From NCBI GenBank assembly GCA_005223125.1, contig NJBH01000012.1:32001-96000 (forward strand): a stretch of DNA of 64,000 nucleotides, written 5' to 3'. The position numbers and the translations under genes were made by a program. Under the pieces are notes generated by a model. That model worked only from the letters and a program-made list of their open reading frames with translations. It was not told where the DNA came from and searched no databases. Positions 12,077-50,000 of the stretch are shown here, piece by piece. This stretch comes from Promethearchaeota archaeon Loki_b32 (GTDB lineage: Archaea; Asgardarchaeota; Lokiarchaeia; Sigyniarchaeales; SOKP01). Numbering within the stretch: the first letter of the stretch is position 1; each line of letters begins with the position of its first letter.

Positions 12077-13120
12077 TTAAATGATACAAATTGGAAATCC
12101 ACAAAACTTACAATTTCCGTCAGAATCTAAATAAGACTCTTTAATACCTAAAATTTTTCTTTTTATGACTAATTTAGAGCATTTGGGGCAATAGGTATTA
12201 TCATAATCTGTAGTAGGTAAATTCCCAAGATATACATATTTCAATCCAACGTCCTTTGCGATATCATAAGCATTATATAGAAGTTCTAAGGGTGTTGGGT
12301 CAGAAAGTCCGTAATTTTGTGATTTATAATGAGGAAAGAATCGACTTATATGATATGGTGTAAATTCACCTAATTCATTAAAAATCCGTTTAGAGCGTTT
12401 CCTAATGATTTCATCCTCAGAATTAAATCCTTGGATTAATAATGTTGTAATCTCTACATGAACACCTAATATTTTTGCTAACTTCGCATTTCTCCATACT
12501 TTTTCTACATCAATGCCACAATATTTCTCAACCATATCAGAATCTCCTTTTATATCTATATTCATTGCATCGAGACCAGCATCTACTAAGTCTTTTAAAA
12601 CTTCTTCTGTCATATAGCCATTTGTAACATATGTATTGTATAAGCCATTCTCTTTTGCTAGTTTAAAAACTTCTAATGAATATTCAAACAATAATGTAGG
12701 TTCATTAAAAGAAATTGAGGTTCCATCACACTTTCTGTTTAGAGCAATCTCAATAAGTTTCTTAGGAGAAAGAAATTCGTCAGAGGTCGCAAACTGGCTA
12801 GCTCTAAAAGCATTTGTTTTTGAAAGATGGTGATTTTGACACCAAAAACATGCAAAATTACAGCCATAAGTCCCTGCTGTTATTGCAGTACTTCCAGGAT
12901 GAAAATGATATAGTGGTTTCTTCTCTATAGGGTTAAATGATAAAGCAGGTATCAATCCATAAACAACAGAATATATTTCTCCCTCTTTATTAGTTCGTGA
13001 TTGGCAAAATCCAGACTTTCTATTTGAAATTTTGCATTTCCTCTCACAAATGAGACATTGTGAGAAATTCTCATCAATTTTTCGCTGATGTTTAGCTCTT
13101 ATTGTGAAGTCTGAATTCAT
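12077..13120 (-). CDS. amrS: AmmeMemoRadiSam system radical SAM enzyme
   Basis: PIEKKPLYHFHPG, GCNFACFWCQN (CxxxCxxC), FNEP, SRFFPHY, YLGN, TYCPKC. Confidence 0.88.
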   Translation of the reverse strand: MNSDFTIRAKHQRKIDENFSQCLICERKCKISNRKSGFCQSRTNKEGEIYSVVYGLIPALSFNPIEKKPLYHFHPGSTAITAGTYGCNFACFWCQNHHLSKTNAFRASQFATSDEFLSPKKLIEIALNRKCDGTSISFNEPTLLFEYSLEVFKLAKENGLYNTYVTNGYMTEEVLKDLVDAGLDAMNIDIKGDSDMVEKYCGIDVEKVWRNAKLAKILGVHVEITTLLIQGFNSEDEIIRKRSKRIFNELGEFTPYHISRFFPHYKSQNYGLSDPTPLELLYNAYDIAKDVGLKYVYLGNLPTTDYDNTYCPKCSKLVIKRKILGIKESYLDSDGNCKFCGFPICII

Positions 13121-13186: not shown

Positions 13187-14548
13187 TTAACGTGTTTTCA
13201 TAAGAGGTATAATTAATCGAAAAAACCAAGAGTAAAACTTTCTAATAAATGAAATATTAAATAAAATCCTCATAAATTTTAAGAGAATTTGTCTTTTAGG
13301 TTTGAAAGTACTGAAATTCTTATCATATTTTAGATCTTTAATAAAGAAATTTTTCTTAAAAATAGAAAGCAATAGAGAATAAGATATGATTGCTATAATA
13401 TCCCAAGCACGTTTTATGTGATCTTTTGGGTAATTAAGTTTTTCTCCCATTGATAGTCTTACAACTTCAATAATATGGAAGATATCAATTTTACTTCCTA
13501 AAAGTTCCCGAGTAGCCCATAAAAAATAAATACATCCACTACAATACGAAATTAATGCTTGAGCACCGGTTTCTTCAGCTTCTCTAAACTTTTTCACTCC
13601 TTCTGAGATAATATCAAAAGGTAAAGCTATATTTTTAACCCAAGACGCTCCAGCGCCAAATCCACAGCATAAGGCGTCTTTTTTAATATGCCGCATTTCA
13701 ATAATATTGCATCCACATTTGTTTAATATCTTTCTTGGTTTGTCCCAATATTTTCCGCCTAAAACTTTAGAAAAACAATTATCATGTATAGTTACATTCA
13801 TATTAAGCTGATTAGGTAGATTTATTTCACCTGAATCGATATTTTCAATTAGCCAATCATGGAAATTTATAAGATCGCGGTTATGTTCGACTCCCATTTC
13901 TTTGGGATGAACATTGTTGAACATATATTCAACAGTATCTAATAAAGCAACAATCCTTTTTACATTCCAACCATCAAAATCTTTTTTTGTTTGATTAGCA
14001 ATTTCTTTTACAACGTCTAAATAGCCTCCTTGATATAAATAAGCTCCTCCTTCCCAGTGATCAATCAAATCTATGGGCTTAAAATATTCCAATAATTTAC
14101 TTCCTCCTATAATAAATGGAAATAAATGAGTATAACTCCCAATCAACAAAACTGTATCTTCCTGTTTAGGGACATTATACATCCATTTATGGATCCATTT
14201 TTTTTCTGTATTGGAAAGAAATAAATTGAGGAGTTGCCAGAGATTTGGTTCTTCAGTAGGGCACACAAACCTATAAAGAGGTGGTGCTCCTCTTTTTTTA
14301 TATATTTTATTCCATCTTTCAAGAATTAATTGGTAGGGATTAGCTTGATTTGGACAATATAAATTACATGAAAAACATGTATTACATTTATTTAGCACGT
14401 ACTTACTTTCTTTCCCTTTAATTAAATTTATGATTTCCTGTTTTGCTTTTTCTAAAGGTAAATGTAGAACAGGGCATAAATGAAAACATAATCCACATGA
14501 ATCGCATAAATCTTCTTTAAAAAAACGATATTTAGTATTTTGAAACAA
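13187..14548 (-). CDS. (Fe-S)-binding oxidoreductase, HdrD/GlpC CCG family
   Basis: Two CxxCxxCxxxCP motifs at the N-terminus, HDNC, CCGFGAG, SYCSGC; first CCG repeat degenerate. Confidence 0.8.
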   Translation of the reverse strand: MFQNTKYRFFKEDLCDSCGLCFHLCPVLHLPLEKAKQEIINLIKGKESKYVLNKCNTCFSCNLYCPNQANPYQLILERWNKIYKKRGAPPLYRFVCPTEEPNLWQLLNLFLSNTEKKWIHKWMYNVPKQEDTVLLIGSYTHLFPFIIGGSKLLEYFKPIDLIDHWEGGAYLYQGGYLDVVKEIANQTKKDFDGWNVKRIVALLDTVEYMFNNVHPKEMGVEHNRDLINFHDWLIENIDSGEINLPNQLNMNVTIHDNCFSKVLGGKYWDKPRKILNKCGCNIIEMRHIKKDALCCGFGAGASWVKNIALPFDIISEGVKKFREAEETGAQALISYCSGCIYFLWATRELLGSKIDIFHIIEVVRLSMGEKLNYPKDHIKRAWDIIAIISYSLLLSIFKKNFFIKDLKYDKNFSTFKPKRQILLKFMRILFNISFIRKFYSWFFRLIIPLMKTR

Positions 14549-14739: not shown

Positions 14740-15066
14740 ATGCAAGACACAGTTGGAATAATAAAAATACTAAAAGAATTTAAAGTTAGACTTCAAAATT
14801 TATATGGAGATAAATTTTCGAGCCTAATATTATATGGTTCTTATGCAAGAGGAGAATTTATTGAAGATTCAGATATAGATTTGGCAATAATTCTAAAAGG
14901 AGAGATATCTCCCTTCAAAGAAATCGATAGAATGAGTGAAATCACGTATGATCTCGTTTTAAAATATGATATTTTAATATCAATTCACCCCGTATCAGAG
15001 GAACGCTATTTATTGATGAAAACTCCATTTTTAATGAATATAAGAGAAGAAGGTATTCAAATATGA
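14740..15066 (+). CDS. Minimal nucleotidyltransferase (MNT) antitoxin
   Basis: LYGSYARG...DSDIDL (GSx10DxD); ends IREEGIQI. Confidence 0.9.
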   Translation: MQDTVGIIKILKEFKVRLQNLYGDKFSSLILYGSYARGEFIEDSDIDLAIILKGEISPFKEIDRMSEITYDLVLKYDILISIHPVSEERYLLMKTPFLMNIREEGIQI

Positions 15067-15455
15067 GTGAAATTAATATTAAACCATTAATTGAAAAAGC
15101 AAAGAAATTTATGAAAAGTGCTAAACTATTGCTCGATGTTGATGATTTTGATAGTTCGGCTTCAAGGATTTATTATGCAATGCATTACATGGTTGAAGCA
15201 TTGTTATTAACTAAAAATCTGAGAATAAAAAGCCACAGAGGATTGATTTCTATCTTCGGAAGGGAGTTTATTAAAACCAAAATTTTGCCTAAAGAAGTAG
15301 GTAGACAACTTAAAGATGCATTTGATAAAAGGCAAATTGGCGATTATGAAATATCTGTGAAGATTAATAAAAAAGATATTGAAGAACTACTAAAAATTGG
15401 ACAAAGATTCATTGAAAAACTAATGGATTATTTAGTAGAAAATAATTTCCTTTAA
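15063..15455 (+). CDS. HEPN domain protein
   Basis: SRIYYAM, KSHRGL, RQIGDY; ATGA overlap with MNT. Confidence 0.88.
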   Translation: MSEINIKPLIEKAKKFMKSAKLLLDVDDFDSSASRIYYAMHYMVEALLLTKNLRIKSHRGLISIFGREFIKTKILPKEVGRQLKDAFDKRQIGDYEISVKINKKDIEELLKIGQRFIEKLMDYLVENNFL

Positions 15456-15551: not shown

Positions 15552-16367
15552 TTAAGGGGCAATAATTAGAATTATAATATAAACAAGCATTAAATTACCC
15601 AAGATAATTCCAATGTCTTTTAAAGATGTCTTTCCATATAAATTAGTCCTAGGTTTTCTGTAGATATACATAATTCCCAATGGAAAAAAAACTATCGGTA
15701 TAAATATCCAATACGGCGTAATAATAAAGGAAAGTATTGCTATAAGTAATGAAACTATACACGCAATCCAAATTACTAATTGAGATGTTTTAGGTTTTAA
15801 TTTTGCTAGAGAATCTCCATCAATCATTTCATGAACCATTTGCCCTGTAAATGCTACTGCTATTATAGTTGCTAATATTAATGACTCATACAACTCCATA
15901 TAGGGAAAGATATTCATGAAATTATCCCTCGCTTTTATTTTAACCATAAAATATGGTAGAATTATATGAGAGACTCCTAAAATAATATGATTAATAATGA
16001 CAAGCTTTTTGAACATACAATAGAAAACAACCATAAATACAATTATTGCTAGGTAGAATCCTAGAATCGGATTCACTAATATATCATTCATGAAACACAT
16101 AGTTCCTAGCATAAAACTTGCGATGGCAAGAACGGCAATTTCCTTTCTGCCATATCCTTTCACTCTTTCCAGAGTTTCTTTTTCATTCGGATCTTTCATG
16201 TCAATGACATCATTGAGAGTGTTTCCCGTTATTGCATAAAAAGCAAAACCCGCTAATATCCAAATGTGAGATACTATATCATATCCGTTCAAATATATAC
16301 ATAATAAGCAAGGGATTATTACAGAAAAAATATATTCAACCCGAAGAAGTTTAAATCCCTTACTCAT
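15552..16367 (-). CDS. UbiA-family prenyltransferase
   Basis: NTLNDVIDMKD aspartate-rich motif, HEMIDGD second motif, about 8-9 TM segments. Confidence 0.7.
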   Translation of the reverse strand: MSKGFKLLRVEYIFSVIIPCLLCIYLNGYDIVSHIWILAGFAFYAITGNTLNDVIDMKDPNEKETLERVKGYGRKEIAVLAIASFMLGTMCFMNDILVNPILGFYLAIIVFMVVFYCMFKKLVIINHIILGVSHIILPYFMVKIKARDNFMNIFPYMELYESLILATIIAVAFTGQMVHEMIDGDSLAKLKPKTSQLVIWIACIVSLLIAILSFIITPYWIFIPIVFFPLGIMYIYRKPRTNLYGKTSLKDIGIILGNLMLVYIIILIIAP

Positions 16368-16527: not shown

Positions 16528-16935
16528 ATGCGAAAAATTATGTTTGATTATGACGAATACAATAGATGGATGAATGAAGCAGAAAATACATTCAAGTCTG
16601 CAATTGTGGATAAGGAAAATGGATTTTATAATTGGTGTTGTTTTAAGTGCCATCAAGCTTCTGAATTCGCATTAAAAGGATTACTATATGGTTTAGGATT
16701 AACTCCTTTTGGCCATTCATTGACTAAAATGACCAATGATTTAAAAGACCAAAAAATAGATATTGCATTAATATTAACTTCTTGTAAAAAACTTGATTTA
16801 CATTACATTCCTTCACGATATCCCAATGCACATCCTACAGGGTCTCCATTTGAATATCATGATAAAAATATTGCTGAAGAAGCCATAACAAATGCTAAAA
16901 AAATAATGGATCTCGTTAAAGGTATTAAAAAATGA
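16528..16935 (+). CDS. HEPN domain protein (second subfamily)
   Basis: WCCFKCHQASEFALKG, GHSL, HYIPSRYPNA. Confidence 0.88.
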   Translation: MRKIMFDYDEYNRWMNEAENTFKSAIVDKENGFYNWCCFKCHQASEFALKGLLYGLGLTPFGHSLTKMTNDLKDQKIDIALILTSCKKLDLHYIPSRYPNAHPTGSPFEYHDKNIAEEAITNAKKIMDLVKGIKK

Positions 16936-17357
16936 AGAAAAACTTAAAATCCATTAATAAGGGTATTAAAAAATTTTGTCAGAATATTATTAAAGTAATG
17001 CAACCGAACTGTATAATACTCTATGGATCCTTAGCTAGGGGGGATTTTAACGAGCGAAGTGATGTTGATGTAATAGTAATATCATCAAAACTTCCTAAAA
17101 ATTATTATAAAAGAGCAGAATTGCTTTTTAATATGGTTGAGACATTAGATCCTATCGAACCTCTTGGTTTTACTCCTGATGAATTTATTAACATGATAAA
17201 AAATAGACATTGTACAAGTTTATTTGCGATGAAAGAAGGTAAAGCTTTGTATGGTAAGAAATATTTCTTATTTTTAAAGGGAATTCATGAAAAAATTATA
17301 AATCAATATAAAATAATCAAGGGACATTCATCTTGGATTCCTGAATCAATAAAATAA
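16932..17357 (+). CDS. Minimal nucleotidyltransferase (MNT)
   Basis: LYGSLARGDFNERSDVDVIV; ATGA overlap with HEPN. Confidence 0.88.
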   Translation: MKKNLKSINKGIKKFCQNIIKVMQPNCIILYGSLARGDFNERSDVDVIVISSKLPKNYYKRAELLFNMVETLDPIEPLGFTPDEFINMIKNRHCTSLFAMKEGKALYGKKYFLFLKGIHEKIINQYKIIKGHSSWIPESIK

Positions 17358-17489: not shown

Positions 17490-18596
17490 TCACTTTCTAA
17501 TTACCCAAATACTATTACCACCCTCTTTTATAAATTCTGCTCTCGTAAAGGGTGTTGAGTCAATGAATTCTTTAAAACTTTTTTCATTATAAAAATTTGC
17601 AAAACGCGCTTCAAGAAATTTGTGTAATACATCGAAAAGCAATAATTTTTGTCTTGGTGCAAAAGTGTCTGGAATCATACTCTCTCCAACGAGCAAAATT
17701 CCATCGTCTTTTAATAAAGAATATAGGCTATTAAAGATGCTTGATCGGTAATTTACATCATGATCCATCTCATGAAGGACTTGATTTAGTGTTATCAAAT
17801 CAAATTTTTTTATGCTAATTTTTGCATATTCATTAATCGGGATTTCATGAATTTCAATCCTATCATCCCAGTTATTTTCCTTTACCATTTTTTTCGCAAA
17901 ATCTATAGCAATAGGATCGATATCAATCCCAACAAATTGTACTTTTTCATATTTCTTTGCCCATACTTGAAGGTTGTATCCATATCCACAGCCTGCCTCT
18001 AGTACTGTACCTCCATTTTGTAGTTTTTCACAAAATTCTTTATAATTTGTTGAGAATAATCTCTCTATTAATGTACCAAATCTTGCACTCATCCGATTTA
18101 TATCATGAATCACCTCATCAGTAAATTCAAAATTGGGTACAACTCCATCTTGTTTAAAAGCATCAAGAATTAATTCTTGGTATGGTGCGAGATAATAAAA
18201 AGCCCCTAACGGATCCCCAATATAAGCCGGTTGATTACGATTGATTAATAACTCATATACATATGGTGCAGTTCTTAAACATCTTTCACAAGAATCATCG
18301 ATTTCCAATAAACCACACTCAAGAGCAGTGTGTGCCCACGCATCTACATAATTTCGTTCTAGGTTTAATTTTTCAGAAACTTCATTAATTGTAAAAGTAA
18401 CTGAAGATATCTTTTCAGTATTAGACTTACTTTTAGCTTTTTCTTGAAGATAATCTAAAATTCCTACTCTTCTTCCTAAACCAAATATAAGAACAGTTAG
18501 AAAGCCATAAAGGCTTTTTATCAGAAATTTTTTCATCTGATCTTTCATTGTAATTTCATCATTATTATTTTTTTTTTCTGAAATTGCTTTCACCAA
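17490..18596 (-). CDS. Class I SAM-dependent methyltransferase with N-terminal winged-helix-like region
   Basis: VLEAGCGYG, VGIDID, NQVLHE, LLKDDG. Confidence 0.85.
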   Translation of the reverse strand: MVKAISEKKNNNDEITMKDQMKKFLIKSLYGFLTVLIFGLGRRVGILDYLQEKAKSKSNTEKISSVTFTINEVSEKLNLERNYVDAWAHTALECGLLEIDDSCERCLRTAPYVYELLINRNQPAYIGDPLGAFYYLAPYQELILDAFKQDGVVPNFEFTDEVIHDINRMSARFGTLIERLFSTNYKEFCEKLQNGGTVLEAGCGYGYNLQVWAKKYEKVQFVGIDIDPIAIDFAKKMVKENNWDDRIEIHEIPINEYAKISIKKFDLITLNQVLHEMDHDVNYRSSIFNSLYSLLKDDGILLVGESMIPDTFAPRQKLLLFDVLHKFLEARFANFYNEKSFKEFIDSTPFTRAEFIKEGGNSIWVIRK

Positions 18597-18660: not shown

Positions 18661-18891
18661 TTAACTTTCTCTAAGAGTTATAACCTCATCCGGTAAAAAT
18701 GAATTCAAGATATCACTTATTATCCTATTATCTTCTATTGGAATGCCTCTAATCACAAATTCAGATTTCTTAAGAGGATCCACTTTCCAATCGAATTCAG
18801 TTAGAAGATAACGTTTGATATCGATAAATTTATCTTCTGGTTCTATCATAAAATCATCCATTAGTTTCTCGAGGTCTTTGACTTTTACCAT
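18661..18891 (-). CDS. Ubiquitin-like (beta-grasp) 76-aa protein lacking C-terminal GG
   Basis: Manual alignment to ubiquitin: VKxL...EPxDxxxxxK and GxxxEDxRxxSD blocks align without gaps; GGAG RBS upstream. Confidence 0.65.
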   Translation of the reverse strand: MVKVKDLEKLMDDFMIEPEDKFIDIKRYLLTEFDWKVDPLKKSEFVIRGIPIEDNRIISDILNSFLPDEVITLRES

Positions 18892-18997
18892 TTTCTTTCT
18901 CCAAATTTATTTTTTAATTTGAATGAGATAAGAATTTTTAATGTGTATTCAATAAAAATTTAAGTTTCAAAATTTATAAAGTTTTAAAAATCATTAC

Positions 18998-19792
18998 CTA
19001 AAAATACATTCTAATTGCTAAGCCCATCAACACAGCTGCGACTAAAAATTGTAAATAACTTCTAGGAATTTTTCCAGAAATTTTTGCCCCAAAAATGGAG
19101 CCTGAAATCGCCCCTACTCCAATTAAAATTCCAAATAAATAGTTTATTTGACCTATAATACTTTTAGCTATAGTATTATATATTGCTGTGAAGAATATTA
19201 TCCCTGTAGATATTGCTGTGGCATTATGAATGGGATATAAAAGAATAATATGAAGAGAAGGAGTATTGATAATACCCCCTCCAATTCCTAATAAATTAGC
19301 GGTAAACCCTGCCAAAAAAAATAAGGGTATTGACTTTCTGAGATTAGTTTGATAGTCATGATTATGCAGCATAAAATTATTTTCAAATTCTTCTTGAGAT
19401 AGATTAATCCTTCTAGATTTAAGTGCTTTATATGCCATGTTTGTTCCAGCTATTAGTAATGTTGTAGCAAATATCATTTTTAAAATATTTTCATCTAAAT
19501 CAACGAAAGTGAATAATACCGTACTCACAAAGCTTCCTAAAATCGAAAATGAAGAAAAAATAGCAACTTGTTTAATATGCAGTCTTTCTTCTTTGAAATA
19601 AATTAAAAATCCTGCCCCAGAAGAAATTAATATTATGAAAACAGAAGTATCTACAGCGACGTTTATTGGAATAAAAAAAAGAAGAACTAATGTGCTTACA
19701 AAAAAAACTCCACCCCCTATACCAACAATAGAGCTTATGGTTCCGAAAAGAAATCCTGCTATTAATAGGATAATAACTACGACAGTATCCAT
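18998..19792 (-). CDS. Sulfite exporter TauE/SafE (TSUP) family protein
   Basis: Repeated GIGGG motifs, A-x-x-TS/ST helices, about 8 TM segments. Confidence 0.88.
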   Translation of the reverse strand: MDTVVVIILLIAGFLFGTISSIVGIGGGVFFVSTLVLLFFIPINVAVDTSVFIILISSGAGFLIYFKEERLHIKQVAIFSSFSILGSFVSTVLFTFVDLDENILKMIFATTLLIAGTNMAYKALKSRRINLSQEEFENNFMLHNHDYQTNLRKSIPLFFLAGFTANLLGIGGGIINTPSLHIILLYPIHNATAISTGIIFFTAIYNTIAKSIIGQINYLFGILIGVGAISGSIFGAKISGKIPRSYLQFLVAAVLMGLAIRMYF

Positions 19793-20092: not shown

Positions 20093-20482
20093 ATGCCCGA
20101 TTCTGACAACGATAAATTTGTTTTAAAGCTTGTACCGTGTTCTCGTTGTGGAAACCCTTTTATGATTAAAAATAATCAAAAAAATTCGGGCGAAATATTT
20201 TGTGATAATTGTATAAAATTAGAACAAAGAAAAAAGCAATTAGCTTCCTCTGTACTTGAATCTCAGAAAGAAATTAAAACTTCTATTAAAGAATATGAAA
20301 ATAAATTAGAATCAGCAGATTCACCAGATACAAAAAAAGCTTATTATGAAAAAATCAAAAAACAGTCTGAAATTTTGACTAAATCGGTTGAGCTCCTCAA
20401 AAAAATTGAAGAAACTAATAATGAGAAATATATCGAAGAATACAAACGACTATTCGAAAAAATGAAAAAGGAAAGTTCATAA
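20093..20482 (+). CDS. Zn-finger + coiled-coil hypothetical protein
   Basis: CSRC...CDNC then heptad-rich charged helix. Confidence 0.65.
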   Translation: MPDSDNDKFVLKLVPCSRCGNPFMIKNNQKNSGEIFCDNCIKLEQRKKQLASSVLESQKEIKTSIKEYENKLESADSPDTKKAYYEKIKKQSEILTKSVELLKKIEETNNEKYIEEYKRLFEKMKKESS

Positions 20483-29649: not shown

Positions 29650-29940
29650 TTACCAAGAATGAGTTATTGCTCCAAGTTCACAGACTTTTACACATGGTAA
29701 TTCTTTTTCTTCACCACTAGGTTTACAAGGAGCACATGAGTACTTTATCTTCTTGCGGTGTTCATCAGAAACGGTTGCAATAATTTCATCACCTAAAGGA
29801 TCTAATTCATCTTCTGCCATTTCAAGAACTCCAGCGGGGCATACTTCTACACATTTACCACATGAATTACATAAATCCGTATCAATAGTAATAAAATATT
29901 CTCCTGAACCATCCTTATAACCATAGTTTGCCTTTGCCAT
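29650..29940 (-). CDS. bzdM: Bzd-type ferredoxin
   Basis: ANYGYKDGSGEYFITIDTD, CNSCGKCVEVCP, YSCAPCKP...PCVKVC, AITHSW. Confidence 0.85.
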   Translation of the reverse strand: MAKANYGYKDGSGEYFITIDTDLCNSCGKCVEVCPAGVLEMAEDELDPLGDEIIATVSDEHRKKIKYSCAPCKPSGEEKELPCVKVCELGAITHSW

Positions 29941-29978
29941 TTATTTCCCTTTATTTTTAATTAATTATTAAAATAAAT

Positions 29979-30866
29979 CTAAGATTTTTTACGTTCTTTT
30001 TCAACAAGAGCTTTAGCAAACAAAGCGGCGCCAATTGCTCCTGCAAGTTGGGGGTCAATACTAGGTTCTGGAGCTTTGAGTTTCAACTCATCTTCGATTC
30101 TCTTTACAACTCCAATATTTTTAGCGATACCTCCAGTTATGGCAAACTTCTCTTCTATTCCAAGTCGTAATAACAGTGTTACAACACGATGTGCCATAGC
30201 TGAACAATATGCTGCTAAGACTTTTTCTTTTGGCCAACCTTTTCTAAGCAATCCAACGGCTTCTGATTTGGCAAATACTACACAAGTACTACTAACTGGT
30301 TCAGGTTCTTCTTCAACCTCTAAGGACATTTTTCCTACATCATTAATGTGTACTTGAAGCAAATCTGCAAAAACTTCCATCCCTCTACCTGTTCCTGCTG
30401 CACATTTGTCATTCATGAGGAAAGCAGTTACTTTACCGCGTTGATCACAGCGTATTGCTTTACAATCTTGACCACCCATATCTAACACAGTCCTTATCTC
30501 AGGACCGTAAATAAAGTTTGCACCTCGTGCATGACAAGCTATTTCTGTAATTGCTCGTTTTGCGAACGAAACATTAACTCTTCCATATCCTGTTCCAACA
30601 ATATATTGAATTTTATCTAAAGATAATCCCGTTCCATCAAGTGCCCAATCCATAGCATTATTAGCGCTATCTGGACTATCACTACCAGTTCGCATACTTG
30701 AATAACAATAAATTTTCCCATCAACCATTATTACTGCTTGGGTACTGACTGAGCCAACGTCTACGCCAGCCGATATAATATCAACATCTTTCCAATTAAG
30801 ATCGGGGTTAGTATAACGTGATTCGGTCCATCTCCAATATTCTTTATTTGATTCTGCATTTGACAT
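29979..30866 (-). CDS. bzdQ: Benzoyl-CoA reductase (Bzd-type) subunit Q, ATP-binding
   Basis: N-terminal EYWRWTE extension, GVDVGSVS, TGYGR, EIACHARG, DMGGQD, MNDKCAAGTGR; ATG 30866 after GGAGGT. Confidence 0.92.
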   Translation of the reverse strand: MSNAESNKEYWRWTESRYTNPDLNWKDVDIISAGVDVGSVSTQAVIMVDGKIYCYSSMRTGSDSPDSANNAMDWALDGTGLSLDKIQYIVGTGYGRVNVSFAKRAITEIACHARGANFIYGPEIRTVLDMGGQDCKAIRCDQRGKVTAFLMNDKCAAGTGRGMEVFADLLQVHINDVGKMSLEVEEEPEPVSSTCVVFAKSEAVGLLRKGWPKEKVLAAYCSAMAHRVVTLLLRLGIEEKFAITGGIAKNIGVVKRIEDELKLKAPEPSIDPQLAGAIGAALFAKALVEKERKKS

Positions 30867-30867
30867 A

Positions 30868-31656
30868 TTAATAACCTCCAATTTTATCTTGCGCTACAAG
30901 CGCAGCTCCTAAAGCACTCACATATTCTGGAGCTACCCCATCTTTTGGTACTAAGAGCCCAAAACCTAAGTTTCTGTTCATTGAATCAACAAATCCAATA
31001 TTATTCGCAACTCCGCCTATCAATGCGACATCTTTCTCAATACCTATTTGACGTACCATACTCGTGTTTCTATCCGCAATTGCGTCATGAACAGCTCGAA
31101 TAATGTCTTCTTTAAGAGTTTTTTGGTGAATTAAGGACACTACCTCTGATTCTGCAAAAATTGTACATTGTGCGTTTATAGGAATTTGTTTTGCTGATTT
31201 TAAAGATAATTCTCCCATATTTTCGATATCTACTTCTAATGCTCTTGACATAGCTTCTATAAATGCACCTGCTCCCGCCGCACATTTTTCATTTATTCCA
31301 AAATCTTTAACTTTTCCTTTATCATCGATTTTTATTACTAATCCTTCTTCTGCTCCGATATCAATTATAGTACGAGCTGAAGGGAAGATAGAATAAGTAC
31401 CCCGAGCATCTGCCGTTATCGTAGTGATTGTATTATGGGAAAACTTAATTGCTTCCATCCCTGCTCCTGTAGCAGTAATATGTTCAATTTCTTCACGTTT
31501 AATTCCTGCTTTTTCTAGAGCACTCTTTAATGCTTGTTCTGCTGATTCTTCTTGGTCAAAACCACTTAATACAGAAGCTGTTGATAAAACAACACCTTCT
31601 TTTACAATACATACTTTTGTATTTTTTGAGCCACAATCAATTCCAGCTGTTATCAT
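30868..31656 (-). CDS. bzdP: Benzoyl-CoA reductase (Bzd-type) subunit P, ATP-binding
   Basis: ITAGIDCGSKNTK, DIGAEE, NEKCAAGAGAF, NAQCTIFAESE. Confidence 0.9.
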   Translation of the reverse strand: MITAGIDCGSKNTKVCIVKEGVVLSTASVLSGFDQEESAEQALKSALEKAGIKREEIEHITATGAGMEAIKFSHNTITTITADARGTYSIFPSARTIIDIGAEEGLVIKIDDKGKVKDFGINEKCAAGAGAFIEAMSRALEVDIENMGELSLKSAKQIPINAQCTIFAESEVVSLIHQKTLKEDIIRAVHDAIADRNTSMVRQIGIEKDVALIGGVANNIGFVDSMNRNLGFGLLVPKDGVAPEYVSALGAALVAQDKIGGY

Positions 31657-31703
31657 ATTAAACCATTTTTCATTTTTTGTTTTAAATCATTATTTTTTTA
31701 AAT

Positions 31704-32183
31704 TTAATTATTAACATCATTGAATTTTAATCGATTTAGCAAGAGGACTAATATTAAATCGAAAATCATTAAAATTGGGATAGGAAAGATTATAACAAAT
31801 AAATTATCTCCATCTGAATTCCTAATAAATATTCTAGGTATAGATAATACTAAAGGAACTATCTCACTAATAATACCAATTAAAAAAAATTGTATTTTAT
31901 TATATTTACCAACAATTAGTAGTAAAACATATATTACAAAGACAAGTCTAAAAAAAACAAATTCAAAATAATAAAGAAATGCACTGAAAAATCTTACTGA
32001 ATACCATGCAGGGCTAAGAGGAACTTCCCATATCATTGAAACAATACTGTTTGGGCCCTGTGGAGCAAGATCTATCATAATACCGAAAGGAAGTAAGAAA
32101 ACTCCCAGAATTGTTAAAACACCAATTATTATTAATATATATCTTTTCATGAGATTATTTCTTATCATGTATTTTTTTTCCAA
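31704..32183 (-). CDS. Hypothetical membrane protein (about 4 TM) within the bzd operon
   Basis: Hydrophobic 159-aa ORF co-oriented and tightly spaced between bzdO and bzdP. Confidence 0.6.
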   Translation of the reverse strand: MEKKYMIRNNLMKRYILIIIGVLTILGVFLLPFGIMIDLAPQGPNSIVSMIWEVPLSPAWYSVRFFSAFLYYFEFVFFRLVFVIYVLLLIVGKYNKIQFFLIGIISEIVPLVLSIPRIFIRNSDGDNLFVIIFPIPILMIFDLILVLLLNRLKFNDVNN

Positions 32184-32194
32184 TATTACTCTAT

Positions 32195-33511
32195 TTATTT
32201 CAAATCAATTTTTTCTATCTCTAATGATTCCATAAAAGCATCTACACGCTTCATAGTTCGCTCAAGATCGAATTCTCTCTCATCTCCCATGTTTCCTTCA
32301 AATGGCATTGTTGGAATCCCAGATTGTTGAATCGCTAAACGATTTTCCGCAATTCCAAGACTTAATCCTTCACATCCCCTATTAAAATGAAGAAAAACTC
32401 CATCTAGTTTCCATTCATTGGCGATCCGAATCATCATATCAGATTTGAGTTTTGGATGGTAAAAGTGTTGCCATTCTGGTTTACTCAAATTCCAATCTGC
32501 GAGAGCTCGTAGTGCTTCATCTCGATTAGTTATCTCAATATCAGGAATCGTCTTTGGACCCCAGGAACCATCTTCTTTATCTTCCCATAATCCTATAAGG
32601 CCAAAAGTGTAAAGACTCCCTATAGAAACGCAACCATAATGCTCTAAATAGCGAAAAATTCTTAAAAAAGCCCATGGAGGTTGAGTATCCGTCATAATTC
32701 GACATCGCTCATTTCCAACAGCAGCTATGCCTCTCTCGACACGATCCTTTACTTCTGGATATAGCTCTTTTTCATAGAAATCTGCTGCCCATTGAGCTGA
32801 TTTTCTTAACGTCCCCAAAACATATAAAGAATACATAGATTTCTCGTCTAAAGGAGCAGGGATTGCTTTATTAAGTTCACATATTGCAGCCCAATAATGG
32901 CATGATCGGAATTCATTTTTAACTGCTTTAATTAAGAGTTCATCATCATAATCTCTTCCTGTGATCTTTTCAAGCCATTTAATTCCATCATGCATCTGAC
33001 CAACAATATAGTTGATCTTATGTTCTGTTCGTTCTTCATATGGACCTACTGAAACATCAATTGAAAACATTGGAATCCCTCCTTCGAGGTCACTTGCTAC
33101 TTGATACCACTTAGCATGGGAACAACAAATATGATCTTGCCAGATGAAATCAGGCTTGGGAAATTCTTCGGAGAATTGTGGCCACGCATATTTATTTATA
33201 AGAATAGATCCCCAATAATTTCGCATATAAGAACAGAGATCTCGTGCAAACCCCTTTGCTTCAGCTGCTTCCTGACATTCTAAGGCTAATTTATCATTGA
33301 ATGCAACAGTAGCACCATAAGGTTCTCCCGTCAATGAATATATATCCTCTCCTAAACCAGCAGGAATTGCATCAAAACTCCATGCACCTCCGGCCCATCG
33401 GAGTCCACCCTTATCATGAGCCTCAGCAAAATCTCTATAATAATTCTCTCTGAGAATTTTAGCATTATTCCAACACTTTAATGGTTCCATTGGATATTTT
33501 GTTTCTGTCAT
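32195..33511 (-). CDS. bzdO: Benzoyl-CoA reductase (Bzd-type) subunit O
   Basis: [54 protein letters not shown]. Confidence 0.92.
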
Positions 33512-33522
33512 TTTTATACCTC

Positions 33523-34662
33523 CTAAAAAAGATCCTCCTCTCTTAATATTTCTAAAAACGCCTCAACACGCGTTTTAAATTGACCAATTGGTACGGTAAC
33601 ATCAAATTCAAGGAATATTGTAGGAACTCCAACATCATTCTCTAAGGCTTTCTTGATTGCAGGGGTGTCCAATTCGTGTGGGTCGCAAAACTTCATTTGC
33701 ATAACGATAGCTCCTTGTATATCATATTCCTTTGCTAATTTAACAATGTGGTCTACCCGTGTTCTTTCAGGCCAGTCTTTGCTCGGACAGGGTATACGTT
33801 TTACATATCGTTCTGCGATTGATGCTAATGCATCTCCATTTGTATTTACTTCTTCATAAAAATATCGAGTACCAGTACAATGTTCATCAATAACAATTCT
33901 CGAACCTAAATCCTCAACCATGGCTATAAATTTAGTATCATCGTCCTCAGAGCCTAATATCATAAGTCGTTCACCAGGTTCATCTAAACTTCTTGAGGGA
34001 AGCTTTTCTAAAAGTTCTACTAAAGCTTTATTATGTTCTCGTTTATCAACCATCTGGGAAGATACTACCATAATCATTGCTTCAAGCCCCGTCAATGGTG
34101 GATTTGGCTGTTTTCTAAGCTCATATACTTGCTGTAAAAGCCGTCTATTAGTATTCATAATCTCAATTCCTCGTTTGAGATCCTCTTCAGTAATTTCTTT
34201 TCCTGTCCATTCTTCAACTGCTTTCTTGAATTCTTTTAGCTCCTCTGTTAAATAAGGAATCGCTCGAGGGCTCTGAATGTGCATTGGATGTGTTAAATAA
34301 TATGTAAAGTCCACAGGAATATGAAGATCCCAGCTAGTAAAAGTTTGTCTAATATGGAGACAACTTTGAGCAATTGTAATTCCATCTAGATAATCAAATC
34401 TACCCTTTAATCCCTGCGCTAAACAATCACGGCAGAAAGGGCAAAACATAGCAAAAATATGCGGTTCAGAGACATCTTGTGGCTCGTGACTACCCAATAT
34501 CCTTACTGGTAGAATATCAGCAGCATAGAGGATTTCTTCAGGTACATATGTACAGAAAGTTCCTATTACTTTACCACCAGTACGTTCTTTCCATTTTTTC
34601 GCATATTCATGACGGTTTTCATACCAGTCTTTAAATTGTTCAAACACACTTATTGCCTCCAT
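33523..34662 (-). CDS. bzdN: Benzoyl-CoA reductase (Bzd-type) subunit N
   Basis: [46 protein letters not shown]. Confidence 0.92.
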
Positions 34663-34771
34663 TTATACTGATTCTATAATAATTATCATAATAAACCATT
34701 TTAATTCAAATATCCCCTTGATTCATTCTATTTTGGAAAGTTAAAAGTAAATTAAAAATTTTATTAAACCT

Positions 34772-35818
34772 CTATTTTTGACATAATATTAATATCCTAA
34801 TTCCTTCTCCCTTACGCATAACTTCAAAAGCTTCATTTATTTCTGAAAGTGGGAATTTGTGGGTAATTAACGGTTTAAGCTGAAGTGAACCATTTTTTAC
34901 CAAGTCTATAATATGTGGATAATCAACGGGACGGCAACCAAGGCTTCCCATTATTTCCATTTCTCGAAACATTACACGACCGATATCGAACCCATCCCAA
35001 CGTTTGGGTGAATATCCTACAGCAACCAGACGACCTCCAGTTCGCAAACTATTAAATGCTTGTTTCATTGTTGCGGGATGTCCAATTGCTTCAAATGCTA
35101 TATCTGCTCCACCTCTTGTTATTTTTCGAATAGCTCCAACAATTTCTCTCTCATCCATACCTTTTGCTAAAACAGTTTCTACAGCTCCAATTTGTTTAGC
35201 AATCTCTAGCTTTTTTGGGATAATATCGACAGCTATAGGCAAACCACCTGCAGCTTTTACATTTTGCACCACATTCAAACCAATCCCACCACAACCTATA
35301 ACAACTACCCAATCGCCAGGTCTTACTTGACCTCGATTTTTTACAGCATGATAAGGTGTTGAGACTGCATCTGAAATGATACAACTTTCTTCTAATGACA
35401 TTTCAGTGGGGAGGTGGACTACATCTTTTATAGGAACCTTAATTTGTTCTGCAAATCCCCCATCAATATGATTACCAAGCATTATTTGATTAAGACATAT
35501 ATTTTCTCTACCAGTTCTACAATTAACACAATAACCACAGGAAAGCACAGCGGGAATAATAACATGATCCCCTTCTTTGAAGGTACTTACATCATCACTT
35601 ACATCTTTAATACGTCCTGAGATTTCATGCCCTAAAATAAGAGGTGGCTGTTTAACTGTTGGTACACCATGTTCTAAATAACCAAAATCAGTATGACAAA
35701 CACCACATGCTTCTATTTCTATTATAGTTTGACCCATTTCACCAGAAATATTTGGGTCAGGATAATTATCATCTAGTTTTAAAGGCTCCTTAACCTTTTC
35801 AAAAACTGCTGCTTTCAT
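34772..35818 (-). CDS. had: 6-hydroxycyclohex-1-ene-1-carbonyl-CoA dehydrogenase (Zn-ADH family; BzdX/Had)
   Basis: CGVCHTD, GHEISG, CGYCVNCRTG..C, DAVSTPY; context between dch and bzdN. Confidence 0.82.
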   Translation of the reverse strand: MKAAVFEKVKEPLKLDDNYPDPNISGEMGQTIIEIEACGVCHTDFGYLEHGVPTVKQPPLILGHEISGRIKDVSDDVSTFKEGDHVIIPAVLSCGYCVNCRTGRENICLNQIMLGNHIDGGFAEQIKVPIKDVVHLPTEMSLEESCIISDAVSTPYHAVKNRGQVRPGDWVVVIGCGGIGLNVVQNVKAAGGLPIAVDIIPKKLEIAKQIGAVETVLAKGMDEREIVGAIRKITRGGADIAFEAIGHPATMKQAFNSLRTGGRLVAVGYSPKRWDGFDIGRVMFREMEIMGSLGCRPVDYPHIIDLVKNGSLQLKPLITHKFPLSEINEAFEVMRKGEGIRILILCQK

Positions 35819-35886
35819 CTTAAATTCCTACAATTTGTTTTATTTTTATTATAATTTAAACCTAATTCTTATTAAATTTAATTAAA

Positions 35887-36654
35887 TTAACGATTCTGCC
35901 AATTGGGTGACCGTTTCTCTAAGAATGCTTGTAAACCTTCATTCGCATCATGCGTAGACATTAATTCTTTAAGATAAAATTCTTCGATTTCATCTAATTG
36001 CGTATCAAAATCGATTCCTAAAGCTTTGTTGAATGCTTTTTTAGTGTATTGTAAAATAATGGCGCTGATATCATTAAAAGATTCAATAAATTTAGTAAAA
36101 TCCTGCTCATATGATTCAAGTGGGAAAATATGATTAGAAATCCCAAGTCTATATGCCTCATCAGCATCAATTATATCACCTAGCATGATAAGTTCAAAAG
36201 CCTTTTTATTTCCAATGATTTGGGGAAAAGCCAATACGGCAATGGGTGGAATTACACCTACTTTTATTTCGGGTTGCCCAAATTTTGCTTTATCTGAGGT
36301 GAGTACAATATCACAGAATATGGCAATTTCACAACCTCCACCAAGAGCAGCTCCTTTAATGCTTGCAATTGTTGGACATTTTAGTTTATTAAGCTTTCTG
36401 AAAATTCCATGAAATTCCTTTATCATTTTGGGGGCTTTATCACCCATATGATCATCAATATCAACTCCCGCTGAAAATGCTTTTCCATTATGATCAAAAA
36501 TTACTGCCTTTAATGATTGATCTTCGAGAAAACCTTCAAGAGCTTTATTAATCTGCTCCATCATACCTATTGTTAAGATATTTAATGGACCATTGTTGAA
36601 TATTATCTTTCCAATATTATTGGTTTTTTCGACTATAATTAAATCATTTATCAA
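35887..36654 (-). CDS. dch: Cyclohexa-1,5-dienecarbonyl-CoA hydratase (crotonase family; BzdW/Dch)
   Basis: AFSAGVD, LGGGCE, GQPEIKVGV, LMSTHDANEGL; context. Confidence 0.82.
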   Translation of the reverse strand: MINDLIIVEKTNNIGKIIFNNGPLNILTIGMMEQINKALEGFLEDQSLKAVIFDHNGKAFSAGVDIDDHMGDKAPKMIKEFHGIFRKLNKLKCPTIASIKGAALGGGCEIAIFCDIVLTSDKAKFGQPEIKVGVIPPIAVLAFPQIIGNKKAFELIMLGDIIDADEAYRLGISNHIFPLESYEQDFTKFIESFNDISAIILQYTKKAFNKALGIDFDTQLDEIEEFYLKELMSTHDANEGLQAFLEKRSPNWQNR

Positions 36655-36742
36655 TTTATATCATCCAATATAGCTATTATTTTCTTTTATACTACTTCTT
36701 TCCTATTTTTTCTAAAATAAAAAAAATTTTATATTTATACTA

Positions 36743-37711
36743 TTATTCGAGTTTAGCTCCACATTTACCACAAAACTTGAAATCAGAAGGTATATTCTTA
36801 GCTTGGCATGAAGGGCATGTCACGGAAGGTGGTCCCCATAAAAATTCGGGATGAGGACTTTCTCGTACACCTCTATAGTTTGGAGGGCGTTTTTCTACAA
36901 ATGCAGACATTCCTTCAAGTGGCTCCCATGAAGTATAATGAATTGACAACCAATCTTTTGCATGTCCAATTGTTTGGTGCCAAACAAAATCTTTCCAGAA
37001 ATTAACTTGTTGTTTTGTATACCTCATACATTCTGGGAATTTATCAATAAGCTTCTGACAATATTTATCAATTTCATCATCTAATTCTGCATATGGTACA
37101 ACAGAATTTACTAAACCCCATTCTAATGCTTTTTCTGCTGAGATTGGTTCACACAGAAATAAGATTTCTCTTGCTCGGCGATCACCAACTATAATGGGTA
37201 ACCATTGAGTAGCACCACCACAAGCAACAGATCCTACTCTTGTCCCTACTTGTTGAATAGTGGCATGATCTGCAGCTACAGCTAAATCACAAGCCATTTG
37301 CCATTCATTACCACCGCCAGCAACGATACCATTAATTCTAGCTATAGTAGGTTTACCGATATTACGGAAAATATCATGAGCTTCTTGAAAAATACACATC
37401 CATTTCCAATATTCAGCAGGTTGGACGGTAAATCTCTCTCTATACTCTTTTACATCGCCTCCCGTACAAAAAGCTTTATCTCCTGCTCCTGTTAAGATTA
37501 TAACTGCAACTTTATTATCCCACGCGGCATCATGAAAAGCCTCAATCATTTCCATTAATGTAAGGGTTGAATATGCATTGTATACTTCTGGGCGATTAAT
37601 TGTGACAGTTGCTTTCCAATCTTTCTTTTCATAAAGTATTTCTTTAAAATCAAATTCTTTTGGATCCTTAGGAGTAAAATTTGGTTCTTTTGTATAAGTC
37701 ATTACTATCAC
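36743..37711 (-). CDS. oah: 6-oxocyclohex-1-ene-1-carbonyl-CoA hydrolase (BzdY/Oah) with C-terminal Zn ribbon
   Basis: YNAY, AFCTGGDVKEY, GSVACGGATQWLP, RYTKQQVNFWKD; C-terminal CPSC...CGKCG. Confidence 0.82.
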   Translation of the reverse strand: MIVMTYTKEPNFTPKDPKEFDFKEILYEKKDWKATVTINRPEVYNAYSTLTLMEMIEAFHDAAWDNKVAVIILTGAGDKAFCTGGDVKEYRERFTVQPAEYWKWMCIFQEAHDIFRNIGKPTIARINGIVAGGGNEWQMACDLAVAADHATIQQVGTRVGSVACGGATQWLPIIVGDRRAREILFLCEPISAEKALEWGLVNSVVPYAELDDEIDKYCQKLIDKFPECMRYTKQQVNFWKDFVWHQTIGHAKDWLSIHYTSWEPLEGMSAFVEKRPPNYRGVRESPHPEFLWGPPSVTCPSCQAKNIPSDFKFCGKCGAKLE

Positions 37712-38227: not shown

Positions 38228-39484
38228 TTATACATCAAAAGCCCATTCTCCCTTTCGCATGATTGCTTCAACCGTACCATCTTCAATAATTCCATCAACA
38301 TCCATCTCTCCTGAGCCAATCATAAAATCGATATGGGTAAGACTAATGTTTCCCCCGGCAGTCATAAATTCTTCATCAGACATCTTGTCGCCATTTTCTA
38401 AGCAAGGTTTATAAGCCTTTCCAAGAGCAATATGACAAGAAGCGTTCTCATCGATTAATACATTATAAAAGAGTAAATTAGATTGTGAGATGGGTGAACT
38501 ATGCGGCACTAGTGCAATTTCACCTAAATAACTTGCGCCTTCATCTATTTCAAATACTTTATCCAACATTTCTTTACCTTTTTTAGCAGTTGCACTTACT
38601 ACACGTCCCTTAGAAAAAGTCAAAGTAAAATCCTCAATTATAATACTAAGAGGGAGGGGTTTTGTAGCAGTTACAATTCCTTCTGTCATATCTCTATGAG
38701 GTACGGTAGCGATCTCCTCTGTAGGTATATTTGGAATAAAATCAATCCCATTCTGTGATTTTTCACGACCTCCAACCCAAATATGCCCTTTAGGTAAGCC
38801 AATCGTTAAATCAGTACCTGGACCATTCAATTTCAAAGCTGTATACTGTTTATGATTTAAATATTTGGACCTTGCGAGGAGTTGGTTAACATGATCATTC
38901 CAAGCTAAAACTGGGTCTTTTTGCTTCACGCGACAGATATCAAATATTTTATCCCATAATTTGGCTTTTCGGTTGTTAGGAGGGAGATCAGGGAAGACTT
39001 TATTGGCCCATCCCTCAACAGGTGCGGAAATTATTACCCAATTCGTCACATTTTTCATAATTAATTCACTAACAGGCTTATAGTGTTTTAAAGCTGTCCG
39101 TTCTACAATTGTCATTAGTTCGAGATCTTGATCAATTAGTAAATCGGGATCAAAGGCATCTATAGTAAGTTTAGCATCACCTTTTTGTGTGAACTCTAGA
39201 GACGCATCTCTTCTCCATGTTGAAAATTCTTCAAAAGAATCCCGAGATGCATGTTGAAGCCTTATTAAATATAATTGAGGATCATTCCAAAATACTTCAA
39301 CAAATCTAGCACCTATTTGATATGCCTTCCTCACAAGTAATCTGACAAATGGGGCTAATTCAAAAATAGGTGTACTAAAATCAAAAGGTTGAATTAATAA
39401 CCGTTGCCCTGGTTGTAAATTAAGACCTACTTTTAAAATTACTTCAGCATACTTTTCTAAATTCTGTTCAAATTCTGATGACAT
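38228..39484 (-). CDS. M29 aminopeptidase (AmpS/PepS family), copy 3
   Basis: NIPTEE, GEIALV, DENASCHIALG, HIDFM metal ligands. Confidence 0.93.
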   Translation of the reverse strand: MSSEFEQNLEKYAEVILKVGLNLQPGQRLLIQPFDFSTPIFELAPFVRLLVRKAYQIGARFVEVFWNDPQLYLIRLQHASRDSFEEFSTWRRDASLEFTQKGDAKLTIDAFDPDLLIDQDLELMTIVERTALKHYKPVSELIMKNVTNWVIISAPVEGWANKVFPDLPPNNRKAKLWDKIFDICRVKQKDPVLAWNDHVNQLLARSKYLNHKQYTALKLNGPGTDLTIGLPKGHIWVGGREKSQNGIDFIPNIPTEEIATVPHRDMTEGIVTATKPLPLSIIIEDFTLTFSKGRVVSATAKKGKEMLDKVFEIDEGASYLGEIALVPHSSPISQSNLLFYNVLIDENASCHIALGKAYKPCLENGDKMSDEEFMTAGGNISLTHIDFMIGSGEMDVDGIIEDGTVEAIMRKGEWAFDV

Positions 39485-39570
39485 TGGATTTTCATTTAAA
39501 TTTTTGAATTTAATTAATTATACTGGATTATATTTACTATATTAAAGTTTTACATTTCAACTATTTCAAG

Positions 39571-40836
39571 TTATACCTTAAAAGCCCATTCTCCATTTCG
39601 CATTATTGGTTCAAATGTACCATCTTCAGTAATTCCATCAACGTCCATTTCACCTGAGCCTATCATGAAATCAATGTGGATAAGGCTTAGATTGCCCCCA
39701 ACTCCTGCAAAGTCATCATCTGACATTTCCTCCCCATTCTCAAGATTGAATTTCCTCGCTCTCCCAAATGCAACATGAATGGCCGCATTTTCATCGATAA
39801 GAGTATTATAAAAAAGCAAATCAGATTGTGATATGGGTGAACTATGCGGAACTAGTGCTATTTCACCAAGATACCGGGCTCCGTTATCCGTTTCAAGTGT
39901 TTTAAGCAAAAAATCTGCACCCTTTTTTGCCTTTACTTCAATTATTCTTCCTTCAGAGAATTTTAGTCTGAAATCTTCAATTATTACACCCCCATAATAG
40001 AGTGGTTTAGTGCTTGACACAATCCCTTCAGTTTTATCTTTATGGGGTATAGTGAAAATCTCCTCAGTTGGCATATTAGGTGTAAAATTAATCCCATTTT
40101 GAGTAGTAGTGATTCCACCTACCCATTTATGGCCTTTAGGTAAACCGATTGTTAAATCTGTTCCAGGAGCAATCAATTTTAATTCATTATATTTTTTACT
40201 ATTTAGATAGTCTTTTCTTTTACCAAGCTGGTCGATATGATCTCGCCACGCGGAAATAGGATCTTTTTCCTTAACCCGACAAATTTCAAAAATAGAATCC
40301 CAAAGTTTAGCTTTTCGACTTTTTTTAGGGAAAGTTGGGAAGACTTTATTTGCCCATCCATCAGTTGCTCCTGAAGCTGCTAACCAGTTCATTGCATTCT
40401 TAGAAATTAAATCAGATAGAGGCTTTACATGCTTGAAAAATGTTTGCTGAAATTTTGTAATTAATTGGGGATCTTGCTCACGAAGTAACTCAGGGTCAGA
40501 ACTAACAATAACAAGGTCTGCATCCCCAGCTTCACCAATTTTAACTTCTGCATCAATTCTCCATTTCGGAAATACTTCGAAGGAGTCTTTAGGGGCATGT
40601 TGGAATCTGATTAACCGCAATTGATCATCACCCCACATCACATCAACCAATCTAGCACCAATTTGATAAGCTTCTTTGGCAATCAATCGCACTAAGGGAG
40701 CAAATTCTAAGGGTGTGCCATCATTACTCAAAGTGAGTCCACCTATAAGTAACCGTTGTCCAGGTTGAAGATTTAATCCTACTTTAACGATAACTTTAGC
40801 ATACTTTTTTAAATTTTGCTCAAATTCTGAAGACAT
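39571..40836 (-). CDS. M29 aminopeptidase, copy 2
   Basis: NMPTEE, GEIALV, DENAAIHVAFG, HIDFM. Confidence 0.93.
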   Translation of the reverse strand: MSSEFEQNLKKYAKVIVKVGLNLQPGQRLLIGGLTLSNDGTPLEFAPLVRLIAKEAYQIGARLVDVMWGDDQLRLIRFQHAPKDSFEVFPKWRIDAEVKIGEAGDADLVIVSSDPELLREQDPQLITKFQQTFFKHVKPLSDLISKNAMNWLAASGATDGWANKVFPTFPKKSRKAKLWDSIFEICRVKEKDPISAWRDHIDQLGKRKDYLNSKKYNELKLIAPGTDLTIGLPKGHKWVGGITTTQNGINFTPNMPTEEIFTIPHKDKTEGIVSSTKPLYYGGVIIEDFRLKFSEGRIIEVKAKKGADFLLKTLETDNGARYLGEIALVPHSSPISQSDLLFYNTLIDENAAIHVAFGRARKFNLENGEEMSDDDFAGVGGNLSLIHIDFMIGSGEMDVDGITEDGTFEPIMRNGEWAFKV

Positions 40837-40933
40837 TGGATTTTCCTTTAAATTTTTAATTTTGATTAATACTGTTAGATTATATTTATTATATTAATGT
40901 TTTACATTTTGGAAGTTCTAACAAGAATTCAAA

Positions 40934-49939: not shown

Positions 49940-50000
49940 CTTAAAATCTTATTATTTATTTTTTTAAAAATAGAATTTAAACAATAGGAAAGTATGTTTA

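Follow-up and report, generated by a model that had tools for sequence, protein, structure and literature searches.

The DNA analyzed in the current work, here called the window, is a stretch of 64,000 nucleotides from the lokiarchaeial genome Promethearchaeota archaeon Loki_b32 (assembly GCA_005223125.1, contig NJBH01000012.1, positions 32,001 to 96,000). In agreement with the original prediction, it contains an open reading frame with an ATG start that encodes a protein of 76 aa, here designated P0001, with TLRES as its C-terminus and therefore no GG; the frame lies on the minus strand. The gene, its upstream signals and its neighbours are listed in Table 1.

Table 1. The P0001 gene, its upstream signals and neighbouring genes in the window.
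Feature	Coordinates	Strand	Basis and remarks
Gene for P0001, a putative tail-less, remodelled ubiquitin-fold protein	18661..18891	minus	ORF, homologues, models, profile match, dN/dS
Shine-Dalgarno-like GGAG	18899..18902	minus	7 nt ahead of the P0001 ATG; read from the sequence
BRE/TATA-like promoter element (putative)	18973..18986	minus	A-rich run plus TTTATAAA, starting 89 nt 5' of the P0001 ATG
TauE/SafE membrane protein, upstream neighbour	18998..19792	minus	PF01925, E 3e-42; upstream in 41/72, the commonest
Class I SAM methyltransferase, downstream neighbour	17490..18596	minus	Downstream in 29/72; varies
Zinc-ribbon and coiled-coil protein, no named family	20093..20482	plus	Block member; 107/135 family genomes
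UbiA-family prenyltransferase	15552..16367	minus	110/135 genomes; immediately 5' of the P0001 gene in several distant homologues
4Fe-4S/CCG-domain oxidoreductase subunit	13187..14548	minus	Immediately 5' of the gene in some homologues
AmmeMemoRadiSam-type radical SAM enzyme	12077..13120	minus	TIGR04337, 252.8 bits (cut-off 220); immediately 3' in the second genus

P0001 is a real, conserved gene under purifying selection. Homologue searches retrieved 197 sequences at E <= 0.01, nearly all of which are exactly 76 aa long and are hosted by Asgard MAGs, chiefly Promethearchaeota, and more distant homologues were found at 35-51% identity. The median dN/dS of the family is 0.11 (194 unsaturated pairs from 22 genes, the pairs not being independent), and its mean identity of 67% is close to that of the neighbouring genes (62-76%). 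The homologues are labelled hypothetical, which is the annotation that had been anticipated. No Pfam family, PF00240 included, was matched at E <= 1 by P0001 or by members of the alignments A1 and A2, P0001 is absent from the PF00240 matches of the genome, an NCBIfam scan of P0001 returned no relevant family, and in PDB sequence searches the best ubiquitin-like match was Get5, at E 0.24. A search for longer or fused forms found none, which is weak evidence, and no homologues were found in viral contigs.

A purine-rich stretch occupies the position of the GGAG in many homologues. The BRE/TATA-like element, located 68-93 nt upstream, is kept in homologues whose upstream genes differ, and the corresponding pattern is present in 33 of 67 homologue upstream regions as compared to 1.1% of 2618 other genes of the genome, a contrast to be read in the knowledge that the pattern was derived from these same 67 regions and that kin are not independent. 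When a promoter matrix built from other genomes was used, the P0001 site was the sole strong match in the genome, and a regulon search of this genome with the upstream motif yielded no further strong site. The element suggests that P0001 may have its own transcription start.

The proposed search for Asgard orthologues produced 43 true matches in 400 genomes, representing this genome, 35 of the 53 others of its genus and seven of the ten of a second genus; the family was found only in these two genera of one family. Two further hits were set aside, the match in genome G128 (E 0.002) being inside a small-GTPase-like ORF and P0128 (186 aa, E 5e-4) being taken as a chance match. The conserved block in which the gene is embedded comprises an ACT pair and genes for the methyltransferase, the zinc-ribbon protein, TauE, UbiA, the CCG Fe-S subunit, the radical SAM enzyme, a hydrolase and an MFS protein, and within it the P0001 gene is placed after TauE in its own genus and after UbiA or CCG in distant members. 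The block is also intact without P0001 in close relatives; since these include four members of the same genus whose genomes are 96-100% complete, P0001 is dispensable. In 20 genomes lacking P0001, an unfiltered search of the surroundings of the zinc-ribbon gene revealed no remnant of it (best E 0.06).

Several additional features of the window were noted. The zinc-ribbon protein contains two CxxC motifs and its gene is usually convergent with one for a methyltransferase, while no AMMECR1 or Memo partner of the radical SAM enzyme was noticed in the block. By eye, apparent nucleotidyltransferase/HEPN toxin-antitoxin pairs are inserted in the block (14740-15455 and 16528-17357, plus strand). Further away, again by eye, apparent subunits and activators of benzoyl-CoA reductase / 2-hydroxyacyl-CoA dehydratase (29650-37711, minus; 48731-51227, plus) are accompanied by ferredoxin, crotonases, alcohol dehydrogenase and thiolase, a cluster possibly serving anaerobic aromatic degradation, and three tandem paralogues of 418-421 aa (38228-42199, minus) appear aminopeptidase-like.

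The genomic arrangement is the basis for an explanation in which P0001 is a ubiquitin-derived accessory or assembly subunit for its neighbouring enzymes (UbiA, CCG Fe-S, radical SAM, TauE), comparable to TmoB or RnfH and with no remaining link to protein modification. The gene stays in the block and co-oriented with it even at 35-50% identity and after moving within the block, the arrangements being TauE>gene in one genus and UbiA/CCG>gene>radical SAM/hydrolase in others, and a precedent of the TmoB/RnfH type is described in PMC1949818. However, each of the three block genes that were tested occurs throughout the family, in 83-110 of 135 family genomes as compared to 43 for P0001, and the block persists without the gene, which has no constant neighbour and a promoter-like site of its own. 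The block also accepts unrelated insertions, and local synteny may therefore reflect inertia. On balance, a role as accessory subunit is unlikely, if still worth serious consideration.

With respect to conjugation, the original prediction had relied on the absence of E1, E2 or E3 genes nearby. None was seen among the ORFs of the window (inspected by eye, with some ORFs scanned against Pfam), and no ubiquitin-system gene adjoins P0001 in 72 distinct copies of the locus. The argument built on this absence is nevertheless void, because an 84-aa GG-ended ubiquitin of Lokiarchaeia (see below) is a stand-alone gene too, and because the genome harbours E1, E2 and JAB elsewhere (JAB-E1-E2-Ubl on contig C36, and E1 with STAG-ended Ubls on C44). 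The C-terminal tail of ubiquitin is what E1 and JAB read, and E1 requires a C-terminal glycine. Gly-Gly ends none of 199 P0001 homologues and none of the 72 locus copies; the chain stops approximately at the position of ubiquitin Arg72, mostly with KEI, KEV or RES, and in two members with KG at the strand end. Considering that no C-terminal glycine protrudes, E1 adenylation would not be expected, conjugation of P0001 is very unlikely and its action would have to be non-covalent.

Within the family, Y28, F45 and R48 are invariant and M15, F22, K26, W35, P67 and E69 nearly so, while conservation outside the ubiquitin core positions concerns Met1, Met15, Tyr28, Glu32, Trp35, Arg48, Pro67 and Glu69. 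Met15 and Tyr28 presumably line the groove between strand 2 and helix 1, by which SUMO and Atg8 bind SIM/LIR peptides. The Ile44 patch is eroded, with M, I, V or L at position 46 and Lys or Arg at the Val70 position. These features bear on the proposal that P0001 serves the ubiquitin system of the cell as a decoy or regulator, which would occupy E1, JAB, UEV or proteasome-associated sites for ubiquitin without being transferable. Such a role would fit descent from a GG-bearing ubiquitin, a genome encoding E1, E2, JAB and several Ubls, and the non-covalent binding of ubiquitin by Asgard UEV domains via an Ile44-type patch (PMC9192718). Yet it is precisely this patch, needed for UEV binding according to the same paper, that is eroded in the P0001 family, the tail has been lost, and linkage to the ubiquitin system is absent from all 72 loci, which together make a decoy improbable.

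The resemblance to ubiquitin had been described as two ungapped blocks, and the 13 identities quoted are in register at an offset of 1 in the N-terminal and of 2 in the C-terminal block, with the K48 position of ubiquitin indeed taken by Ile (Ile50 in P0001). The two blocks reach a BLOSUM62 score of 56, as compared to 6.5 +/- 7.9 (maximum 49) for shuffled sequences, none of 5000 of which attained it; the corresponding p-value is optimistic because the ubiquitin segments were picked in making the original prediction. When 7030 stop-to-stop segments were ranked genome-wide by this score, P0001 came first, followed (score 48) by a Ubl of this genome that does end in GG, encoded on C36. The latter serves as an internal positive control, and a persuasive one, although the significance of the two-block match is overstated. 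Several of the quoted identities are poorly kept among diverse members (E53 in 38%, R56 in 21% and S59 in 47% of 34 sequences).

Structure prediction with AlphaFold2 gave a model of P0001 with a pLDDT of 91.8, three of the five models in this first run being poor (45-62), whereas all five models agreed (pLDDT 89-92) for a homologue of 35% identity, the alignment of which was more diverse. Both predicted structures consist of a strand (residues 2-3), a helix (4-13), an extended link, a helix (23-32), strands (43-47 and 50-51), a helix (58-64) and a final strand (70-75). From residue 14 onward they are ubiquitin-like, with the helix and strands 3, 4 and 5 in the order of ubiquitin; in place of the beta1-beta2 hairpin, both have the predicted helix 4-13 and just a two-residue strand remnant. 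Since residues 4-13 are helical in both runs, the K6 and L8 matches are not structural equivalents of those of ubiquitin. The N-terminal sequences of the family have a hydrophobic moment of 0.70 at 100 degrees versus 0.13 at 170 degrees, which is a helical pattern, they are without the turn glycine, and Asp, Glu or Lys takes the place of ubiquitin core residue Ile13. An amphipathic helix is predicted to stand in for most of the first hairpin of ubiquitin.

All identifiable fold matches have the ubiquitin fold, with 55-68 residues aligned at 2.3-3.7 A, TM scores of 0.5-0.64 (approximately 0.5 to ubiquitin itself) and Z of 4-5.7 (best Z 5.0-5.7), middling values that, according to the tool, possibly indicate just a common arrangement. 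In both exhaustive structure searches all identifiable entries among the 50 matches listed were ubiquitin-fold proteins, as were the top Foldseek matches, the E-values of which were no better than 0.005. Ubiquitin, NEDD8, SUMO, ISG15, Atg8/GABARAP, Ufm1, FERM F0 and a bacterial Ubl were tied; MoaD, ThiS and S4 were not among the matches listed, and are still possible. The structural check proposed originally is thus borne out as regards a beta-grasp-derived fold, this being degenerate and with no special closeness to ubiquitin or NEDD8.

Hub1/UBL5 is characterized by a C-terminal di-tyrosine and by binding of the spliceosomal HIND motif. The original prediction amounted to an intact eukaryote-type fold, Hub1/UBL5- or NEDD8-like, with a eukaryote-like role, and is in line with a two-block match to eukaryotic ubiquitin well over chance, with ubiquitin, NEDD8 and Get5 as the top Foldseek entries for the first model, and with a Z of 5.1 for Hub1 (4pyu_A). 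Against this, both runs and the sequence pattern indicate a helix instead of the hairpin, the TM score to ubiquitin is low, Hub1 (7% identity) shares its rank with some 35 other Ubls, no Pfam family is matched, no YY occurs in the C-termini of the P0001 family, and the family is limited to two genera, so that an intact fold of this kind appears very unlikely. The description as eukaryote-style and nearest to ubiquitin/NEDD8 is not supported, given the degenerate N-terminus, the ties in the fold searches and a nearer relative within Lokiarchaeia; the likeness to Hub1/UBL5 and Elongin B is one of analogy, the family being confined to two genera.

This nearer relative is the 84-aa Lokiarchaeial ubiquitin (loci L148-L177), which ends in ATQAGG(x) and matches PF00240 at E 4e-11. 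HHalign of the P0001 family against it returned P 68.5% and E 4.6e-5 over 48 columns, a result to be read with the caveat that P is 68% rather than above 95% and that both alignments are shallow (Neff 1.4-2.3). The score of 29.2 was reached by none of 300 column shuffles (mean 10.6, maximum 23.4), three unrelated small families scored 7-12, and a reversed alignment was also below the observed value. Single pairs between the two families are 28-39% identical over 44-54 aa. Sequence homology of P0001 to a bona fide ubiquitin-superfamily member appears to be detectable at moderate strength, and from these comparisons the nearest relative found is, as far as sequence can tell, this GG-ended ubiquitin rather than Hub1 or SAMP. 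The ubiquitin-superfamily origin originally put forward is supported; profile similarity exists to this PF00240-family protein, and not to PF00240 itself.

The 84-aa ubiquitin is widespread, but neither it nor the two genes that usually follow it were found in this assembly (G000, 95.5% complete; cf. L179-L186), where its usual upstream gene, on C2, is followed by other genes, reflecting loss or an assembly gap. PF00240 proteins are present in 133 of 135 genomes of the host family.

The other Ubls compared by profile gave no match to P0001. The idea that P0001 is a relic of the Ubl (87 aa) belonging to the JAB-E1-E2 cassette, a cassette that shares the block of P0001 in two genomes of a different genus, was rejected, since HHalign gave P 0.1% and the two proteins occur together in many genomes. 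The cassette with its convergent Ubl of 84-91 aa, which ends in IGG plus a short extension, is located at L146:4642-8958 (C36 of G000, preceded by two GTPase-like paralogues), L090:6928-9204 and L101:2015-4321, and the Ubl, which is without Pfam match, occurs in 77 of 161 class genomes in up to four copies. A STAG-ended Ubl as parent reached P 1.6% and only E 0.02-0.03. Three such PF00240 Ubls, with acidic N-terminal extensions and a single glycine in the STAG end, were observed (L049:1366-3016; L051:1007-2268, C44 of G000; L048:1477-1815, C70); one adjoins E1, and a further protein noted with them has a hydrophobic N-terminus and carries a ubiquitin domain at its C-terminus that lacks GG. Membership of SAMP/MoaD/ThiS is contradicted by the lack of GG and of a PF02597 match, and P0001 is, as had been claimed, distinct from the ThiS/SAMP protein of the window (HHalign P 1.2%), which itself matches PF02597 and ends in VGG (53163-53444, minus); near the latter gene is an apparent aldehyde:ferredoxin oxidoreductase gene (55776-57554). 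A search with PF03671 (Ufm1) in the 400 Asgard genomes gave nothing credible, and this profile also misses published Asgard homologues (PMC12962969). Convergence, or an origin in a different branch of Ubls (for example that of Ufm1 or of MoaD), is the least probable of the alternatives, for although Ufm1 chains are among those of lowest rmsd (2.4-2.5 A, Z 4.9), MoaD has the order S1-helix-S2 (PMC1949818) and P0001 lacks any Pfam match, no shuffle attains the score of the profile match to the 84-aa ubiquitin, the match to the SAMP of the window is negligible, and many other Ubls lie within 1 Z unit of Ufm1.

P0001 and the 84-aa ubiquitin have in common a core that extends from the DP/EP anchor over helix 1, the F-x-x-x-G strand turn and a P/E-D motif, as well as the last strand (DVITV / EVITL), a stand-alone gene and the same host family. 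P0001 differs by an N-terminus shorter by about six residues, a predicted helix for the hairpin, a loop after helix 1 that is two residues longer, a longer second helix, the absence of QAGG, a restriction to two genera and the lack of a PF00240 match. With type I Ubls (ubiquitin, NEDD8, SUMO, Atg8) it shares helix 1, strands 3-5, the 22-55 bridge and equivalents of K27, G47 and D52, yet it has no C-terminal glycine, no intact beta1-beta2 hairpin, an eroded Ile44 patch and no K48. Like Hub1/UBL5, Elongin B, the Get5 UBL, YukD/EsaB, TmoB and RnfH, it is a tail-less ubiquitin fold presumed to act by binding, a likeness without demonstrated orthology, and nothing in its context relates to the spliceosome, cullins or type VII secretion; clusters of YukD and TmoB are weak feature-level neighbours of P0001 (0.87-0.88). 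Hub1/UBL5, Elongin B, the Get5 UBL, EsaB and RnfH retain strands 1 and 2. The same is described for YukD and TmoB in PMC1949818, where S4 is presented as an RNA-binding, TGS-derived, degenerate beta-grasp domain that lost its first strands; S4 is a precedent for decay of N-terminal strands, with no sequence link to P0001. Overall, P0001 would resemble a non-conjugated Ubl in its working, but falls outside PF00240, type I Ubls, SAMP/MoaD and proteins with a Hub1 tail, and is predicted to lack the canonical hairpin.

The explanation to which we assign slightly better than even chances is that P0001 is a ubiquitin-derived, non-conjugated binding module, being a lineage-restricted, diverged paralogue of the 84-aa ubiquitin; its computed basis consists of core homology, tail loss, purifying selection and the predicted helix 4-13. 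Points that weigh against it are the middling fold scores, the HHalign probability with its shallow alignments, the poor models of the first run, the dispensability of the gene and the failure to find the 84-aa ubiquitin in this assembly. Judging from ungapped extension from the shared DP/EP anchor, the ancestral 84-aa ubiquitin would have shed about six N-terminal residues, comprising most of strand 1, and the same extension at the last strand indicates that the final four residues, QAGG, may have been lost. The short PPDQA stretch of the parent hairpin could then have grown into the new helix. The tail-less protein would act non-covalently, most likely as a small module for one protein partner, and non-conjugated beta-grasp proteins are established as adaptors and assembly factors (PMC1949818). 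The candidate binding face, mapped from alignments, would be formed by the strand-2 remnant and helix 1, with Met15 and the invariant Tyr28 together with Met1, Glu32 and Trp35. We advance more tentatively, and regard as rather doubtful, the fuller scenario of a ubiquitin paralogue that quit conjugation, converted its hairpin into a helix and became a SIM/LIR-type adaptor, which would represent an independent origin, in a prokaryote, of a non-conjugated Ubl with an undescribed beta-grasp topology.

In the literature searched no published description of the P0001 family was found, although a listing as an unnamed cluster in the supplements of PMC12962969 is possible. Lokiarchaeia have diversified their Ubls independently, in at least four families. 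The P0001 family is structurally unusual and amenable to in vitro tests, yet a family so narrow and dispensable is probably not the ancestor of any Ubl of eukaryotes. Many non-conjugated ubiquitin folds exist in eukaryotes, and inferences on how they arose out of modifiers have to be drawn from divergences of great age. In the present case, the putative parent and its derived copy belong to one archaeal family and remain alignable, and the loss of the tail and the predicted change from hairpin to helix may therefore be studied with two small proteins.
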